From: an uncultured delta proteobacterium | Lineage (GTDB): Bacteria; Desulfobacterota; Zymogenia; Zymogenales; Zymogenaceae | Direction: 5' to 3' | Length of the DNA: 64,000 bases | Assembly (NCBI GenBank): GCA_963792965.1 | Contig: CAWBYW010000009.1 | Coordinates: 64,001-128,000 of the forward strand | Shown: piece by piece, positions 37,781 to 48,533 of the stretch | Numbering within the stretch: position 1 is the first letter of the stretch | Layout: every line of letters starts with the position of its first letter | The notes under the pieces: model-generated | What the model saw: the letters and a program-made list of their open reading frames with translations, nothing else | Told to the model about the DNA's origin: nothing | Databases searched by the model: none | Made by a program: the position numbers and the translations under genes

Positions 37781-37833
37781 TAACCAATTGAAATAATTCA
37801 ATATTTAGTGCTTTAAGTTGGCACGACGATTGC
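37781..37833 (+). promoter_or_regulatory. IHF-like site plus sigma54 (-24/-12) promoter
   Basis: TGGCAC-GACGA-TTGC at 37819-37833; TAACCAATTGAAA at 37781 (its reverse complement resembles WATCAAN4TTR). Confidence 0.75.
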
Positions 37834-37923
37834 TCTTAGAATACTCAGCCGCGATTACGCATCAATATAGGCCGTTGGTCATGCCTCGGTCGGATGTGTA
37901 GCGCTAATACGTAGGAGAAAGCC

Positions 37924-38613
37924 ATGACACATTTGAAAGCAGTTGGTGTTCCGCCCGATCTCGTTCCCGTTTTCGAAGCTGCTGAAGAAAAAATCAAGGG
38001 ATTCTTCGACACCATTAAACCCTATCCCGAAAAGGGGAGAATAGAGATCGGTGGAACAAGGTTCATGTGGGCCCAGGCGCGCGGAATGGCGCTTTCTTTC
38101 CGTGATACGATAATAGACATATACGGTGAGAAAGGGACTGAACAAATTCTGTATAAGTTCGGCCACTCCCTCGGTTCTCACGAGGCCAAGGCCTTCATCG
38201 AGCGCTTCAAACTGAAAGATCCGGTGGAAAAGCTTGCGGCGGGCCCGGTCTACTTCGCCTATACCGGCTGGGCATTCGTCGAATTTCTCCCGTCCAGCAG
38301 GCCCGCTCCGAATGAGGACTGCATTTTGACGTACAACCATCCCGGCTCTTTTGAGGCCGAGTTCTATCTCGCGGACAAGAAAAAAGCCGACCACCCCATC
38401 TGCTTCATCAACGCCGGGTATTCGTCGGGGTGGTCGGCGGAAAGCTTCGGTCTCCCGCTCGAGTCACGGGAGGTCACCTGTCAGGCGCGGGGAGACGAAC
38501 ATTGCACGTTCGTTTTGACCCACCGCAACAAGATGCTGGAGAGGCTCGAGAAATTCAGAGAGCTCCTGAAGACGAAGAAACGCTCCGAGATTACGACGGA
38601 AGACCTGCTCTGA
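37924..38613 (+). CDS. Stand-alone XylR-N/V4R domain protein, copy A
   Basis: PEKGRIEIGG, AAGPVYFAYTGWAFVE, CFINAGYSSGW and EVTCQARGDEHCTF (V4R Cys/Glu metal ligands); AGGAG RBS; no output domain. Confidence 0.88.
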   Translation: MTHLKAVGVPPDLVPVFEAAEEKIKGFFDTIKPYPEKGRIEIGGTRFMWAQARGMALSFRDTIIDIYGEKGTEQILYKFGHSLGSHEAKAFIERFKLKDPVEKLAAGPVYFAYTGWAFVEFLPSSRPAPNEDCILTYNHPGSFEAEFYLADKKKADHPICFINAGYSSGWSAESFGLPLESREVTCQARGDEHCTFVLTHRNKMLERLEKFRELLKTKKRSEITTEDLL

Positions 38614-38634
38614 GGACGGTTCGAAAGACTGTTG

Positions 38635-38786
38635 AAGAGGTTGAGATTTGCATGCTCTCCAAGCGGCTGGGGGCGCGGCATGGCCCTTGCTTTCCGAGAT
38701 ACTATGCCCGATACCTACGGTGAAAAGGGGACGGAATAGACCCTCAATAAATTCGACCAATCACCGGGCTCCAGCAAAGCGAAGGG
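38635..38786 (+). pseudogene. Decayed fragment of the same V4R gene
   Basis: Translates as ...GMALAFRDTMPDTYGEKGTE*TLNKFDQSPGSSKAK, versus GMALSFRDTIIDIYGEKGTEQILYKFGHSLGSHEAK in the intact copies; in-frame TAG. Confidence 0.75.
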
Positions 38787-38840
38787 AATTGTATAACATC
38801 AAATCCTTATCCTGAACAATATTCACAGGAGCCAGCCATT

Positions 38841-39446
38841 ATGAGCGGCGATGAGAAAATGGCGACGAATATGTCCATTCGGGCGGCCGTCGATTGTTTC
38901 ACCGAAATCATGGGGAAGAACGGTGCGAGAATAATCTTCAGGAATGCGGGGTTCGAGCACATCTATGACACCCCCCCGCCGTACGACTTGAATCCTAATA
39001 TTTCCGTAGAGTCACAAACTCGACTCTATATTGAGGTCGCCCAACTCGTCGGGCTCAAAGGAGCGCTGAGCATATGGAGGCGAGTCGGATATGCAGCCGT
39101 AAAATACGGGAATGAGTTCGGCCATGCATTTGACGCATATACAGATCTTCCTCCCGATGAAAAATACAACAAATCCAGCGAGCTCCTCTCGATGGTGATC
39201 GGCAAGGGGAAGACAGTGATGAGTGGCACGGGGAGGGTTGATTTTGACTGCTTTGACTGCACGGTATGCTCCCCGTACTTCTCCTCGGAGACCAAGAGGC
39301 CGGTTTGTCTTCTCTATACGGGTGCACTTCAGTATATTGCCGATTGGGCGTACGGGAAAAACGCCGCACAGGTCGTCGAGACGAAATGCAAGGCAAAGGG
39401 TGACGACACGTGCTACTACGAGCTGGTAATGACTGAGCCTTCTTGA
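38841..39446 (+). CDS. Stand-alone V4R (4-vinyl reductase) domain protein, divergent type
   Basis: CFDCTVC...PVCLLYTG...VETKCKAKGDDTCYY; AGGAG RBS. Confidence 0.85.
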   Translation: MSGDEKMATNMSIRAAVDCFTEIMGKNGARIIFRNAGFEHIYDTPPPYDLNPNISVESQTRLYIEVAQLVGLKGALSIWRRVGYAAVKYGNEFGHAFDAYTDLPPDEKYNKSSELLSMVIGKGKTVMSGTGRVDFDCFDCTVCSPYFSSETKRPVCLLYTGALQYIADWAYGKNAAQVVETKCKAKGDDTCYYELVMTEPS

Positions 39447-39545
39447 TATGACCTGCTTGGCCGGGTTGTCCGCTCCCGTAGCGGCTGCTGAAGACAGATC
39501 CCGATGAGGGGGTAGCCGACAGCAACGATCCCCCCAAAATGTCAT

Positions 39546-39597
39546 CCTTACCTTTGAACGAATCAAAGCGTAATCCCATATCTTCCGCCTTTTCATC
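39546..39597 (+). repeat. Conserved upstream block, copy 2
   Basis: CCTTACCTTTGAACGAATCAAAGCGTAATCCCATATCTTCCGCCTTTTCATC. Confidence 0.8.
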
Positions 39598-39900
39598 TAT
39601 CGCGATCCCCGCAAATCTGACAGTGGAGATTAATAAGCCAAGAGGAAAGTCGCCATGGCGATTAACCTCCCTCTCGATAATGCCAAAACAATAGAAGATA
39701 GTATGCTGACATATGATATTCGTTTTTATGCGCATGTGCAAGAAATCTTGCACCCTTGATTTTCGGAAATACCAATGATAATAGGCTGTTTCCCGAAACG
39801 TGACAAGAATTATGCATAGCGCGCCTCCCCTCCCCCCGGCCAAACGGATATAGGCTCGACAGGTGAGCCATTAGGATAACAAACTAAGTGTTTTCTTCTA

Positions 39901-39954
39901 TAACCAGTTGATGTCGCTTAAGGCTCCCCGCGCCTAAGGTGGTACACTATTTGC
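39901..39954 (+). promoter_or_regulatory. IHF-like site plus sigma54 (-24/-12) promoter
   Basis: TGGTAC-ACTAT-TTGC at 39940-39954; TAACCAGTTGATG at 39901 (reverse complement CATCAACTGGTTA). Confidence 0.72.
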
Positions 39955-40048
39955 TACTTACCATATCTTGGCCGTAAATACTTACCGGGCAAGATAGAAA
40001 GTCAGGCTCTATGTCGGATAGATTACATCAATTAGTAAGGAGAAATTC

Positions 40049-40738
40049 ATGACAGCATTGAAAGCAGTGGGTGTCCCACCCGATCTTGTTCCCGCCTTCC
40101 AGGCCGCTGAAGAAAGAATCAAGGGATTTTTCGATATGATTAAGCTCTATCCCGAAAAGGGGAGGATAGAGATCGGCGGCACGAGGTTCATGTGGGCACA
40201 GGCGCGCGGAATGGCGCTTTCTTTCCGTGACACGATAATCGACATATACGGTGAGAAAGGGACTGAACAAATTCTGTATAAGTTCGGCCATTCCCTCGGT
40301 TCCTACGAGGCCAAGGCCTTCATCGAGCGTTTCAAGTTGAAAGACCCGGTGGAAAAGGTCGCGGCGGGCCCGGTCTATTTCGCCTATACCGGCTGGGCAT
40401 TCGTCGAATTTCTCCCGTCCAGCAGGCCCGCGCCGAATGAGGACTGCATCTTGGCATACAACCATCCCGGCTCCTTCGAGGCCGAGTTCTATATCGCGGA
40501 CAAGAAAAAGGTCGACCATCCCATCTGCTTCATCAACGCCGGATATTCGTCCGGGTGGGCCGCGGAGAGCTTCGGCCTCCCCCTCGAGGCCCGGGAGGTC
40601 ACCTGCCAGGCGCAGGGAGACGAACATTGCACGTTTCTTCTGACCCACCGCAACAAGATGTTGGAGAGGCTCGAGAAATTCAGAGAGCTCCTGAAGACGA
40701 AGAAACGCTCCGAGATTACGACGGAAGACCTGCTCTGA
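40049..40738 (+). CDS. Stand-alone XylR-N/V4R domain protein, copy B
   Basis: 229 aa with 15 differences from 37924-38613 by manual alignment; AAGGAG RBS. Confidence 0.88.
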   Translation: MTALKAVGVPPDLVPAFQAAEERIKGFFDMIKLYPEKGRIEIGGTRFMWAQARGMALSFRDTIIDIYGEKGTEQILYKFGHSLGSYEAKAFIERFKLKDPVEKVAAGPVYFAYTGWAFVEFLPSSRPAPNEDCILAYNHPGSFEAEFYIADKKKVDHPICFINAGYSSGWAAESFGLPLEAREVTCQAQGDEHCTFLLTHRNKMLERLEKFRELLKTKKRSEITTEDLL

Positions 40739-42443: not shown

Positions 42444-42722
42444 ATGAAAAACAGAAAAGTGGTGAGCTTTCTGATCTCGCTGTTCTCCCCGATCCTCCCT
42501 ATCGCCGCCGTTCTCCTCATTGACCGAATCGAACAGGCGGCAGCTCTCCTCGTTGTCTCGGTCATCATCCTGGCCGTGGTGGTCTGCTCGGTGATTATGT
42601 TGTTGAAGACAAAGGAAAAATCGCCGGGGATGAAGATCATCGGGACGATCTGTGCCGTCCTCGGCATTCTGATCACGGTGATCGTCGGACTTATCGCCGG
42701 ATGGACGCTGACGAAGATATAG
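42444..42722 (+). CDS. Small three-TM membrane protein
   Basis: 92 aa, hydrophobic; GGAGG RBS within the end of the preceding gene. Confidence 0.65.
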   Translation: MKNRKVVSFLISLFSPILPIAAVLLIDRIEQAAALLVVSVIILAVVVCSVIMLLKTKEKSPGMKIIGTICAVLGILITVIVGLIAGWTLTKI

Positions 42723-43196: not shown

Positions 43197-43211
43197 TGGC
43201 ACGCGGATTGC
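43197..43211 (+). promoter_or_regulatory. sigma54 (-24/-12) promoter
   Basis: TGGCAC-GCGGA-TTGC, a full consensus match, 66 bp upstream of the 28-aa ORF. Confidence 0.75.
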
Positions 43212-43276
43212 TTAATAGAAGACAGAGAGAAAGTCAGAACGCGTTTTCAACAGCGCTCGTAATGGGGGGAAAGACG

Positions 43277-43363
43277 ATGAAAGATGACGACGTTGGAAGC
43301 TGGATCATGGTTGTTCTCATGCTTTTTTTAACGATGTATCTGTTATATATGACCGTCGCCTGA
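43277..43363 (+). CDS. 28-aa single-TM small protein, paralog 1 (MKDDDVGSWIMVVLMLFLTMYLLYMTVA)
   Basis: ATG...TGA; GGGGGA leader; 22/28 identical to 44462-44548, with mostly synonymous DNA differences. Confidence 0.8.
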   Translation: MKDDDVGSWIMVVLMLFLTMYLLYMTVA

Positions 43364-43527
43364 AGACGGCCGAACAAGGGAGTGAGTGGAAATCGAGTGG
43401 AGTTTTGATAGGCAAACCGGCCGCGGACTTCGCGCCGTCCTTTATCTCTCTCTTCTCACCTTCCGCTCATTGCATCCGGCAAAGTCGCGAGCGTTTCATT
43501 AGTAATTTTAGCCTGCGCGGTGGAACT

Positions 43528-44076
43528 ATGAAAGTCGGTGAGTTTAAATTCGACGAGCTCTTGAGCTTTGACCCTCATTGGGGACAAATCCTCTTCAAAG
43601 GCGAAGATTTACGCAGGATGAGCGCCGAGTCATTCGGAGACCTCCTCAATGAAACCATCGATATCGCCGGACCCAACATGGCCCGGGTATTGATGGAGCA
43701 CATCGGCCGCACCGCCGGAAAGAGCGACGCACACACGATCAGGGAAACGCGTCCCGCCGGGACCGATCTGGACTGGCTGGCCTTCGAGCCCACCATCCGT
43801 ACCTGGGAGGGAATCGTCGAAGGGGTCCCGGAGACCGTAGACATCGACCGGAGATCGGGAAGGTTTTACATCAAGGGGATCTGGAAGAACTCGTTCTTTG
43901 CCGAACAGTACGTCAGGCATTTCGGGAAGTCAAAAGACCCGGTCTGCTGGTTATTGAACGGATACGCCACGGGCTATGCGAGTGAGTTCTTCGGCGCCCA
44001 CCTTGTCGCGCGTGAGCTTACGTGCAGGGGAATGGGCGACGATGCCTGCCGCTTCGAGATCGCGCCCATGCAGTAG
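43528..44076 (+). CDS. Stand-alone XylR-N/V4R domain protein (DmpR/XylR A-domain-like)
   Basis: LSFDPHWGQILFKG, WEGIV, WKNSF, CWLLNGYATGYAS and ELTCRGMGDDACRF; ends without an AAA+ domain. Confidence 0.85.
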   Translation: MKVGEFKFDELLSFDPHWGQILFKGEDLRRMSAESFGDLLNETIDIAGPNMARVLMEHIGRTAGKSDAHTIRETRPAGTDLDWLAFEPTIRTWEGIVEGVPETVDIDRRSGRFYIKGIWKNSFFAEQYVRHFGKSKDPVCWLLNGYATGYASEFFGAHLVARELTCRGMGDDACRFEIAPMQ

Positions 44077-44461
44077 CACGCCCTCTCTCCGGCCGACGCG
44101 CATGGGGCCCCGCCTTCTATTCGGTATCGCCGTGGGGTCGGGGGCGGATTTCACGGCCTGGTGGAATCGAGACCCGAATCGACGCCCCCAAGGGGCATTG
44201 CGTCAGGAGCCGCACGATCCGTAGATCAAATACGTTCATGCCCGTTCCATAGAAAAGACGATTGCAAAAACCACCGTTACCCCGCACACGCGTGGCCCCA
44301 TACCGTATAAAAAAGGTTACGGACAAGGCAAAATTCTCCGCAAACAGAAGTTTACTGTTAGCTGCGTCACAGCTCAAGCGATAAGAGCTGTTAACATGGA
44401 TGATGAGAGATGAACCGAAATACCTATGGTTTCGATAGTGCGGAAAATGAGGAGACAAGCA

Positions 44462-44548
44462 ATGAAGTATGATGATGTCGGTAGTTGGCTTATGGTGATT
44501 ATTATGCTCTTCCTGACGATGTACCTCCTTTATATGACCATCTTCTAA
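44462..44548 (+). CDS. 28-aa single-TM small protein, paralog 2 (MKYDDVGSWLMVIIMLFLTMYLLYMTIF)
   Basis: GAGGAG RBS about 7 nt upstream; ATG...TAA; paralog of 43277-43363. Confidence 0.82.
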   Translation: MKYDDVGSWLMVIIMLFLTMYLLYMTIF

Positions 44549-44850: not shown

Positions 44851-45265
44851 TTATTTCTTCTCCTTTACCGTTGCGATGGTGAGCTTCTCAAACCCCGCCC
44901 GTTTCGCGGCGTCCATGACGGACACGACCGCCCCATGCGTCGCGTCGGAGTCCGCCCGGATGACGATATTCCCGGAGGGATTCGTTTTTTTGAGCGCCGG
45001 TGAGCTTATCCAGAAGAGTATCCGGAGTATAGGCCTGGTCTTCCATCATGATCTCGTTTTGCCTCGTCACCACCACGACCACCTCCTCGCCCGGTTTTGG
45101 GAGCTCTTCCACGGCGGATTTGGGCAGCTCCACCTTGAGGCCGGACGGATGGACAAAGGTCGTGGAAAGGACGAAGAATATGATAAGGTTGAGCACCACA
45201 TCGATAAGAGAGGTCAGGTTAATAAATACCTCTCCCTGCGATTTTGCCTTTTTCCTGAAGTTCAT
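44851..45265 (-). CDS. exbD: ExbD/TolR biopolymer transport protein (frameshift near 44995)
   Basis: INLTSLIDVVLNLIIFF; after the shift IVIRADSDATHGAVVSVMDAAKRAGFEKLTIAT, ending at TAA 44851. Confidence 0.85.
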
Positions 45266-45274
45266 GCCCCCCCC

Positions 45275-45892
45275 TTACTGGTCTCCCTTGATGATATCTA
45301 CCAGCCCGATGGAATACTGCTGCATATCCAGCACGAGGTCCTTGACCTTGCCCAACAGGTAGTGATAACCGATGAGCGCGGGGATTGCAACGGTGAGGCC
45401 GCTGGCGGTGGTGATGAGCGCCACCGAGATGCCCCCGGCAAGCTGGGACGGATCGGCGACATTACCTCCCACGACCTTTTCAAAAACCTGGATCATCCCC
45501 TGGACGGTTCCCAATAGCCCCAGAAGCGGGCTGACCTGGGCGATCACCGAGAGGACTCCCACGTATTTCTCGATATACTCCGCCTCCTGTCCCCCGACCT
45601 CCTCGACGGCGACCTTGATGGCGTCCCGTTTCTTTCCGTAGTTGTTCATCGCGGCCTGAAAGATCCGCCCCATGGGGGAGCGATCACGCTCGAGGAGTAC
45701 CGTCACGTCGTCTATTCGGTTCTGTTTGAGCAGCACCTCCACATCTCTCAGAAGATCGTCCGGGATGATCCTCTTCCTCCTGAGGAAGAAGATCCTCTCA
45801 AGGAAGACCCCGAGGGCAACCACGGAGCACAGGATAATCGGGATCATCAACACCCCGCCGCTGATGATAAAATCAAGGAAACTCTTCATCAT
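45275..45892 (-). CDS. exbB: MotA/TolQ/ExbB proton channel protein
   Basis: SPLLGLLGTVQGMI and GISVALITTASGL. Confidence 0.9.
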   Translation of the reverse strand: MMKSFLDFIISGGVLMIPIILCSVVALGVFLERIFFLRRKRIIPDDLLRDVEVLLKQNRIDDVTVLLERDRSPMGRIFQAAMNNYGKKRDAIKVAVEEVGGQEAEYIEKYVGVLSVIAQVSPLLGLLGTVQGMIQVFEKVVGGNVADPSQLAGGISVALITTASGLTVAIPALIGYHYLLGKVKDLVLDMQQYSIGLVDIIKGDQ

Positions 45893-47287: not shown

Positions 47288-48533
47288 CTATTTGCCAATA
47301 ATCCCTTTATACTTGTTCCAGTTGAGGATGACTTCTTTGGCCTTATCGAGCTGGATATCCGGTTTTTTCGCCGTCTCAGGTGCGACCGGAAGCTCTCCGC
47401 CGTTGGTCCCCTCTCCAGTGTCCTTGACCTCGACGATGATGTCCGGGATAATCCCCTTGCCGTCGATGGAAGTGCCGTTCGGCGTATAGTACTTGGCGGT
47501 CGTGAGCTTGAGGCCCGATCCGTCCGGGAGCGGTATGATCGTCTGCACCGATCCCTTGCCGTAGGTCTTCTCGCCGATGAGGATGGCCCGTTTGCGATCC
47601 TTCAGCGCCCCCGAGACAATCTCCGACGCGCTGGCGCTGCCGCCGTTAACCAGGACGACCATAGGGATGTCAGCCGGCAGTGTCGAGTCCTTTTTCGCGG
47701 TAAAGGTCATGTCGCTCCCCGCAACCCGTCCCTTGGTGGAGACGATGATGCCCTCATCGATGAAGAAATTGGCGACCTCAACCGATTGCACCAACAACCC
47801 GCCTGGGTCGTTTCTGAGATCGAGGATGATGCCCCTGATGTTGCCGTTGGTCTTCTTGACGATCTCATCCAGCGCAGCCCGGGTATCCTCTCCCGTCCGT
47901 TCCTGGAACTGGGTGATCCGCAGATAAGCGACATTGTTGTCGTATATCTCATATTTGACGCTCTTGATGTTGATGACCTCGCGGGTGATGAGATAGTCCC
48001 TGGGCTTCGTCAACCCCTTTCGAATGATCGAGATGGTCACCTTCGTGCCGGCCGGTCCCCGGAGCTTCTTCACGGCATCTATGAGCGACATCCCGTCGGT
48101 CGGGCTTACCCTCGATCGAGACGATCTTGTCGCCCGCCTTCAGGCCCATCCGCCATGCCGGCGTGTCCTCGATCGGCGAGATGATGCCGGGGTAGCCGTC
48201 GATGATGCCCAGCTCTATCCCGAGCCCCCCGAAGCTCCCCGACGTCTCCACCTGGAATTCCTTATATTCGTCCGGGGTAAAGAAGGCGCTGTGGGGATCC
48301 AAAGAAGAGACCATCCCCCTGATGGCGCCGGTGATCAGCGTGTTGACGTCAACCGGGTCGACGTAGTTCTCCTTGATAAGGTTCAGTACGTCGATGAACT
48401 GCTCGAGATCCTTGTAGCTGTTGGCCGGAGTGGCCGCCAACACCCTATCCAATCCCTTTCCCACCGAGATCCCGACAAGAAAGATCAGGGCGCAGACGAT
48501 GATGACCCTGACCCTGCCGTTTTTTCCTGACAT
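47288..48533 (-). CDS. ctpA: S41 carboxyl-terminal protease (frameshift near 48100)
   Basis: LDPHS and FGGLGI (PDZ); DLRNDPGG, SASASEI and KTYGKGSVQ. Confidence 0.9.

Follow-up and report, generated by a model that had tools for sequence, protein, structure and literature searches.

A 64,000-nucleotide stretch of an uncultured delta proteobacterium of the family Zymogenaceae (assembly GCA_963792965.1, contig CAWBYW010000009.1, positions 64,001 to 128,000 of the forward strand), here called the window, contains two short open reading frames (ORFs) that, judged from their pattern of conservation, truly encode proteins and belong to a family of predicted 28-residue single-pass membrane peptides restricted to one lineage. 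The family comprises ten copies, of which three lie in the window's genome, six in four genomes of a sister genus and one on a metagenome contig. Six of the ten copies are headed by a strict promoter element of the sigma-54 type, and the peptide is most readily understood as a signal-gated small membrane modulator or effector, a reading to which we give a probability of roughly 0.55. The two window copies flank a gene for a stand-alone protein with XylR_N and V4R domains. A preliminary description of the window had proposed that they form a previously unnamed small-membrane-protein family acting together with such V4R sensors. The family has proved to be real, with ten copies and no matching library family; the modulator or effector favored here is not V4R-specific, since the adjacency to V4R genes is restricted to the window locus.

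Two Paralogous Short Genes and Their Relatives

On rereading, the coordinates and the peptide sequences first given for the two ORFs (Table 1) are exact. The two peptides are identical at 22 of 28 residues, four of the six replacements are conservative (I10L, V13I, L14I and V27I; the non-conservative ones are D3Y and A28F), and 13 of the 16 identical residues with degenerate codons are encoded by different codons, all as the preliminary description had counted them. Nucleotide identity between the copies is 62/87, distributed over codon positions 1, 2 and 3 as 20/28, 27/28 and 13/28. The flanks are unrelated, as had also been claimed, with ungapped identities over 100 nt (35/100 upstream and 25/100 downstream) that lie at chance level. 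By Nei-Gojobori counting, 15.7 synonymous sites carry 16 changes and 68.3 non-synonymous sites carry 8, a contrast for which Fisher's test on the rounded table returns p = 1.2e-11. A six-frame search of the window's own genome with copy 1 recovers copy 2 at E = 2.7e-10, and the same kind of search yields a third member on another contig (own copy 3; Table 1).

A profile search of 41 related genomes found further full-length matches in the sister genus, g3: one each in genomes G002 and G009 and two each in G005 and G007, the latter pairs (G005a/b and G007a/b) being tandem duplicates about 760–830 bp apart. The tenth member, on a metagenome contig of 1,124 bp (L050), was found with a degenerate DNA pattern derived from the residues that are invariant in the alignment of the other nine peptides (window copies 1 and 2, own copy 3, G002, G009, G005a, G005b, G007a and G007b). 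All ten copies are exactly 28 residues long, and all ten have a strong ribosome-binding site (RBS), a motif of the GGAG, GAGG or GGGAG type at the expected position; the GAGGAG site reported for copy 2 is among them. No frame but the proposed one is open throughout the ten copies; two stops interrupt the in-register antisense frame of copy 1, and frame +2 contains one to three stops in the three copies of the window's genome. The proportion of non-synonymous differences (pN) is below that of synonymous differences (pS) in 43 of the 45 pairs, the two remaining pairs being G007b and G005b, each compared with the metagenome copy, and the columns that vary at codon positions 1, 2 and 3 number 18, 11 and 24 of 28. 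The homolog search that had been suggested as a check thus produced relatives with a conserved reading frame in both the sister genus and the metagenome, and the purifying selection on protein sequence claimed from two copies extends to the family, with frame, length, start and stop all kept. As to composition, the window copies have a G+C content of 0.40 and 0.38 vs 0.58 for the whole window, and at third codon positions their G+C (0.57 and 0.64) stays below the 0.71–0.82 of the sister-genus copies.

These data also bear on the alternative that the ORF is a leader peptide (an upstream ORF) controlling the V4R gene, or that its conservation is owed to a non-coding RNA. If copy 1 and the V4R gene share a transcript, copy 1 does lie in its 5′ part, as such a leader would. 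However, only one of the ten copies is followed directly by a V4R gene, and the genes of g3 converge on a gene of the opposite strand. Moreover, the substitutions are of the protein type, with saturated third and conserved second positions, and no Rfam family is matched at any of the peptide loci scanned. This alternative is therefore highly improbable.

Predicted Anatomy of the Peptide and Library Comparison

The peptide consists of a short charged head and a long hydrophobic tail. The head follows the pattern M-K/R-acidic-x-acidic...W9, with a side-chain charge of residues 1–8 between −1 and −3 across the ten copies. Residues 9–28, which reach the C-terminus, include no charged residue and have a mean Kyte-Doolittle hydropathy of 1.7–2.3 in every copy. 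The acidic N-terminus and single predicted transmembrane helix recognized in the window peptides are thus features of all copies. The description of this helix as methionine-rich fits the window copies and fails for the family, in which M15 is the sole invariant methionine of the helix. In the nine aligned copies, M1, W9, M15, L16, T19, L22, L23, Y24 and T26 are invariant. The spacing of M15, T19, L22/L23 and T26 (i, i+4, i+7/8, i+11) places them on one face of a helix, which points to a packing surface and suggests helix-helix packing of the peptide with itself or with a larger membrane protein. Complex prediction with four copies of the peptide gave scores of 0.11 and 0.07 vs a mark of 0.42, for a chain below the lengths for which the tool is calibrated and with no folded controls, and this outcome weighs on neither side of the question of self-association.

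The two window copies match no Pfam family at E <= 1 and no NCBIfam family at E <= 10. When nine copies were searched singly, the best Pfam values were E = 0.0055 for MitoNEET_N, an unrelated membrane-anchor model, and 0.011 for DUF2633, none of them near a curated cut-off, while no PADLOC family was matched and the best PHROGs value was E = 0.12. A match to an already described small-protein or toxin family, which the preliminary description had named as one outcome that would speak against a new family, was thus reached in none of Pfam, NCBIfam, PHROGs and PADLOC. The best ESM Atlas score was 0.85, below the mark of 0.9, and the nearest named clusters, YncL, PmrR and YkgR, scored 0.81–0.82, also below it; these matches serve as leads only. 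The genes had further been called unannotated. This is correct for the 28-residue forms, none of which (0/10) occurs exactly in a collection of about 15 billion proteins, and incorrect for copy 2 in a longer form, as a database call of 40 residues, shown under no name, begins at an in-frame upstream ATG at 44426. When relatives of this extended frame with 22–70 residues were sought in the protein collection, only the call itself was found.

Distribution

The order and the class of the window's genome are represented by the same 10 genomes, which fall into five genera (g1–g5). The peptide gene is present in five of them, namely the window's genome (g1) and all four genomes of g3, and was not found in g2 (0/1), g4 (0/1) or g5 (0/3), the genomes being 88–99% complete; the family thus occurs in two of the five genera. 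In an evenly drawn sample of 401 genomes from the phylum, full-length matches (E <= 2.4e-14) were confined to the same five genomes. Another 14 genomes of this sweep gave one partial match each (E 0.007–0.05), and 10 of these 14 matches lie inside open frames of at least 158 residues. The remaining ones lie in short frames (G057, G127, G269 and G346), and that of G269 was rejected because it is unrelated past the first residues. The degenerate DNA pattern, run against one genome for each of 185,579 species, returned six loci on four contigs that coincide with the four g3 genomes, and gave no match in the viral contigs searched. The family is thus narrow in range, being restricted to two genera of one uncultured class. 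The members of this class have been described as fermentative anaerobes of the rare biosphere, in a paper whose text passages do not contain the words "V4R" or "sigma" in the part available (bioRxiv 10.1101/2021.03.22.436540).

Sigma-54 Type Promoter and Possible Regulation

The sigma-54 promoter noted earlier upstream of copy 1 (Table 1) is present and has counterparts in relatives. A strict TGGCAY-N5-TTGC element lies 65–71 nt before the ATG in six of the ten copies, spanning both genera (window copy 1, G009, G002, G005a, G007a and the metagenome contig). Between copy 1 of the window and the G009 copy, the segment from promoter to ATG (−90 to −1) is 69% identical vs 52% further upstream, and both promoters contain GGATTGCTT(T)AATAGA, which argues that promoter and ORF have been inherited as a unit. 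The strict motif extended by one base (TGGCAY-N5-TTGCW) occurs 16 times in the window's genome vs 5.7 expected from base composition. The genome encodes the sigma factor itself (rpoN; Sigma54_DBD match of 213.9 bits, C7:43014-43490) and has 11 full-length Sigma54_activat matches to enhancer-binding proteins, besides one broken gene. In the latter, on the minus strand (G000:C16:74533-74978), the Sigma54_activat domain is spread over three consecutive pieces in different frames, probably the remains of an enhancer-binding-protein gene.

An additional element, a TGT-N10-ACA palindrome of the TGTGA-N6-TCACA type, is found in the sister genus. In G009, G002, G007b and G005b it precedes the −24 position by about 74 nt. 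A composite motif of palindrome and sigma-54 element was searched for across whole genomes. In G002 and G009 it occurs at the peptide promoters only, with 0 hits for the reversed control, whereas G005 and G007 yielded no hit.

Window copy 2 has a similar palindrome ahead of a weak GG-N10-GC element, with a gap of about 72 nt vs about 74 nt in the sister genus. A transcript starting about 12 nt past the weak element, a position deduced from the usual −12 geometry, would begin inside the RBS, so that this element is probably no working promoter. Copy 2 may instead be expressed by read-through from upstream or from a promoter that is not recognizable in the sequence. A second strict sigma-54 site, TGGCACGACGATTGCT, occurs in the window at 37819-37834, ahead of a three-gene V4R cluster whose first gene begins about 105 nt downstream. 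It is preceded by the palindromes TGCAAAATAATTTGCA, ATCCATGTCATGGAT and ATTGAAATAATTCAAT, and the upstream regions of the sites at 37819 and 43197 have no palindrome in common.

The V4R Genes of the Window

Pfam confirms both domains that had been assigned to the gene between the two copies (Table 1). This gene starts 164 nt after copy 1, copy 2 starts 385 nt after it, and, as a simple scan detected nothing terminator-like in the gap that separates copy 1 from the V4R gene, those two may be co-transcribed from the promoter at 43197. Genes of this kind are abundant in these bacteria. There are 39 V4R matches in the window's genome (32 over the Pfam cut-off) and 33, 38, 34 and 41 in the four g3 genomes, whereas only 3 of 14 well-known genomes taken as controls have any. 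The expansion, seen in G000, G002, G005, G007 and G009, is one of stand-alone V4R or XylR_N plus V4R genes of roughly 200–240 residues each, and the window itself contains four of them (37924-38613, 38841-39446, 40049-40738 and 43528-44076). The largest open frame with a V4R match has at most 388 residues, so that none is a full XylR-type activator.

The preliminary description read this arrangement as possibly functional, with the peptides acting together with the V4R sensors, for example as a membrane anchor or as a modulator of a kinase or transporter; a modulator under V4R control is a variant of this reading. The location of copy 1 and the V4R gene on the same strand behind a single sigma-54 promoter, the position of copy 2 shortly after that gene and the second strict sigma-54 site ahead of the three-V4R cluster (37924-40738), 5 kb upstream, are in line with it. 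Comparison with relatives, which had been proposed as a check of synteny, argues otherwise. The adjacency holds at one locus of three, that of the window (nearest V4R match at 0.16 kb from copy 1 and 0.39 kb from copy 2), and is kept neither at own copy 3, where the nearest match is 6.9 kb away, nor at the g3 locus common to four genomes, where it lies at about 8.1 kb (G005), 8.5 kb (G007), 8.7 kb (G002) or 16 kb (G009, a match below the cut-off). No V4R gene lies between the tandem copies of g3. With 33–41 matches per genome, proximity to one of them carries little information. Furthermore, the V4R protein has no predicted membrane part and the peptide only eight residues outside its helix. 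The flanking of the V4R gene by the window copies is thus a local arrangement and no conserved functional pairing; the adjacency looks incidental, and a joint function is very unlikely.

Gene Neighborhoods

The immediate neighbors of the peptide genes differ among the three loci of the window's genome and the locus of the sister genus. In the window, the order is M28 peptidase, 92-residue membrane ORF, copy 1, V4R gene, copy 2, and convergent ExbD and ExbB genes (44888-45892). A MarR/enoyl-CoA hydratase pair and an MFS transporter gene flank own copy 3. In g3, an esterase gene is followed by the peptide gene or tandem peptide genes, a convergent gene for a secreted-looking protein of 111 residues, a patatin-like gene and a gene for an NrpR-like regulator. 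The peptide genes are stand-alone genes within long non-coding stretches, and what comes after the sister-genus copies and own copy 3 is either a convergent gene or non-coding DNA. No ExbB or ExbD family was met among 61 ORFs scanned around three other loci, so this neighborhood is not common to the family.

The esterase gene offers a fixed point for comparison, as it is present in all 10 genomes of the class. Only in g3 does a short hydrophobic ORF or a sigma-54 site come after it, and there the scan recovered both controls (2/2). In the 1.1–1.5 kb downstream of the esterase gene in g1, g2, g4 and g5, none of six loci has an RBS-bearing short hydrophobic ORF or a sigma-54 element. Own copy 3 was considered as the positional counterpart of the g3 gene and rejected, since the esterase gene of the window's genome lies on another contig with no peptide gene after it. 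Genes for Bflower_2 and phosphoribosyltransferase proteins do lie 8–9 kb upstream of both own copy 3 and the g3 gene, and the correspondence of the two loci is regional at best.

A further rival explanation sees in the peptide a counterpart of KdpF, CydX or PetN: a small, stoichiometric subunit that belongs to a membrane complex although its gene lies apart from the genes of that complex. Subunits of this sort typically have its size, its single helix and a conserved helix face, and the strong purifying selection is in keeping with such a role. Small subunits of membrane complexes are, as a rule, encoded inside the operon of the complex. The peptide gene, in contrast, is autonomous and has no conserved neighbor, is not found in three of five genera of the same family that do have the neighboring esterase gene, and occurs as several diverged paralogs per genome. 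We regard a subunit role as decidedly unlikely.

Several observations concern the surroundings of these genes. The 92-residue ORF (42444-42722), which separates the M28 peptidase gene from the peptide promoter, encodes hydrophobic segments and matches no significant Pfam family. A GC-rich hairpin after the g3 peptide genes (Table 1) has 18 predicted pairs, 10 of them with some two-sided change among seven related sequences, and was duplicated along with the peptide gene in G005 and G007. It was considered as the terminator of the peptide gene and rejected because its T-run lies on the opposite strand, that of the 111-residue gene. It is better read as a putative terminator of this convergent gene, perhaps a bidirectional one. 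The NrpR-like regulator, of a type best known from archaea, is encoded about 2.3–2.7 kb from the peptide genes (L051 6136-7143 and L052 12860-13870; NRD1_2 plus HTH_12, E about 1e-78), and genes with glutamate-synthase domains occur further along the same 20-kb stretches of the sister genus. Elsewhere in the window, on the minus strand (47288-48533), a carboxy-terminal processing protease appears split into a CtpB_N-like plus PDZ part (47949-48533) and an overlapping Peptidase_S41 part (47288-48091), which could be a frameshift or an assembly error.

Table 1. Features of the peptide loci. Positions are those of the window unless a contig or locus is named.
Feature	Position	Strand	Sequence and remarks
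Sigma-54 type −24/−12 promoter element	43197..43211	+	TGGCACGCGGATTGC; 65 nt upstream of the copy 1 ATG; predicted leader ~54 nt
Purine-rich ribosome-binding region of copy 1	43264..43273	+	GGGGGGAAAG; ends 3 nt before the ATG at 43277
Peptide copy 1	43277..43363	+	MKDDDVGSWIMVVLMLFLTMYLLYMTVA; 28 aa + stop; acidic 8-residue head, uncharged 20-residue hydrophobic tail to the C-terminus
Stand-alone XylR_N + V4R gene	43528..44076	+	182 aa; Pfam V4R 57.6 bits, XylR_N 49.8 bits
TGT-N10-ACA palindrome	44356..44371	+	TGTTAGCTGCGTCACA; 106 nt upstream of the copy 2 ATG; doubtful function
Weak GG-N10-GC element	44427..44441	+	TGGTTTCGATAGTGC; upstream of copy 2
GAGGAG ribosome-binding site of copy 2	44449..44454	+	7 nt before the ATG at 44462
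Peptide copy 2	44462..44548	+	MKYDDVGSWLMVIIMLFLTMYLLYMTIF; 28 aa + stop
Own copy 3	C35:101123-101206	−	MRDDDFGSWFTVVLMLLMTLFLLYQTVT; 28 aa; GGGAGG ahead of the ATG; six-frame search of own genome
GC-rich hairpin	L004 1420-1443 (A3 columns 52-82)		Between the g3 peptide gene and the convergent 111-aa gene

Proposed Mode of Action

In the model that we favor, the ancestral unit would have been an autonomous mini transcription unit consisting of a sigma-54 (−24/−12) promoter, a leader of about 54–60 nt, a strong RBS and the 87-nt ORF, to which the sister genus would add the upstream TGT-N10-ACA palindrome. Because the promoter of the unit is of the sigma-54 type, expression is expected to be off unless an enhancer-binding protein has been activated by its signal. 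The peptide, once made, would most likely insert into the cytoplasmic membrane and there modify how the membrane itself or one of its proteins functions, acting through its conserved helix face on such a protein or on further copies of the peptide. It would thus be a signal-induced modulator or effector of the class of PmrR, MgrB, YncL and YohP, and the analogy to MgrB- and KdpF-type peptides drawn in the preliminary description is a reasonable guess at the functional class.

Several points weigh against this model. Four of the ten copies lack the strict sigma-54 element. Besides window copy 2, these are G007b, with a weaker GGCAA-N5-TTGC element, G005b, with the same element at a spacing one base shorter, and own copy 3, with, as read by eye, a sigma-70-like TTGAAA-17-TATATT instead. 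The palindrome of the sister-genus type was not found upstream of window copy 1, and no enhancer-binding-protein gene lies within 10 kb of the three loci examined. As no neighbor is conserved across loci, synteny points to no partner protein. Membrane peptides rarely combine an anionic head with the lack of a basic flank at both ends of the helix, which leaves the topology uncertain, and translation of the ORFs is itself inferred from sequence. Finally, the patchy range, the multiple copies, the tandem duplication and the variable context would fit a toxin-like accessory gene equally well.

Such a gene would encode a membrane peptide of the type I toxin, TisB or YohP kind that, when induced, depolarizes or perturbs the membrane and slows growth, the tight sigma-54 "off" state replacing or supplementing an RNA antitoxin. 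A small hydrophobic single-helix peptide encoded by one to three stand-alone genes per genome, tandemly duplicated in G005 and G007 and present in two of five genera of the class, is what would be expected of it, and the 27-residue YohP has been reported, in the part of the paper available, to lower the proton motive force on expression (PMC12719787). On the other side, antisense promoter-like sites at the window locus, L007 and L004 do not exceed the shuffled expectation, in a simple consensus scan that cannot exclude an antisense RNA. No Rfam family is matched at the loci, and no PADLOC or Pfam toxin model fits the peptides. The titles and abstract openings returned by a full-text literature search connect no type I toxin with sigma-54. 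The conserved polar or small helix face, moreover, favors a specific packing role over unspecific damage to the membrane. On balance, a toxin is fairly unlikely.

A bolder version of the favored modulator model is that a dedicated circuit of enhancer-binding protein and sigma-54 has a 28-residue anionic membrane peptide as its sole output, forming a signal-gated membrane switch. Such a switch might control the membrane potential or a transporter in a fermentative anaerobe whose proton motive force would depend on Rnf and the ATPase, the tight "off" state of the promoter doing the job that an RNA antitoxin performs in type I systems. The restriction of the composite motif to the peptide promoters in G002 and G009 would then make the peptide the sole target of its activator in these two genomes. 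This idea is speculative, and we consider it unlikely.

Significance and Comparison With Known Systems

Proteins of fewer than 30 residues fall under the limits of gene callers and are hence missing from databases, as exemplified by the present family. It provides a statistically solid small-protein case from an uncultured class known only from metagenome bins, and it comes with a particularly clear regulatory handle in the form of a conserved sigma-54 promoter whose architecture is unique to the peptide gene in two of the four g3 genomes. The tempting link to V4R sensors has been removed by comparison with relatives. For the present, the family is of use for annotation and as a candidate for expression tests, and specialists will find no surprise in it. 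To our knowledge, the small-membrane-protein field rests almost wholly on enterobacteria. If the peptide is indeed a signal-gated modulator or a growth brake, it would add a sigma-54-controlled case to this field.

Among the known systems, PmrR (29 residues) and MgrB (47 residues) are enterobacterial small single-pass membrane modulators, and YncL (31 residues) and YkgR (33 residues) are stress-induced small membrane proteins. The present peptides resemble them in size class, in having a single hydrophobic helix and no catalytic domain, and in an expression that appears tied to a specific regulatory input. They differ in that no sequence relationship to any of the four was found, and in their anionic head, the lack of a basic flank and the sigma-54 type promoter. 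YohP of Escherichia coli (27 residues) is of nearly equal length and also has a single membrane helix, and it shows no sequence similarity to the present family in any search. In the available part of the study describing it, YohP is stress-induced and lowers the proton motive force when produced, and sigma-54 is discussed for downstream responses only, not as the driver of yohP (PMC12719787).

Two further groups share general traits with the family. Type I toxins such as TisB, Ldr, Ibs, Hok and Fst are likewise short and hydrophobic, encoded by multicopy or tandem genes of narrow and patchy distribution that stand alone in intergenic regions. The present family differs from them in showing neither an antisense RNA signal (in the simple scan) nor a match to a toxin model, and in a promoter of the activator-dependent sigma-54 type instead of SOS or constitutive sigma-70 control. 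KdpF, CydX and PetN are similar in having about 30 residues, one helix and a conserved packing face, whereas the present genes lie outside the operon of any complex, were not found in three of five genera and exist as several diverged paralogs per genome. In all, the peptides are best described, on the strength of their sequences, as a previously uncalled family of a known kind, the bacterial small single-pass membrane proteins, set apart from its better-known members by a dedicated sigma-54 type promoter and an anionic head.

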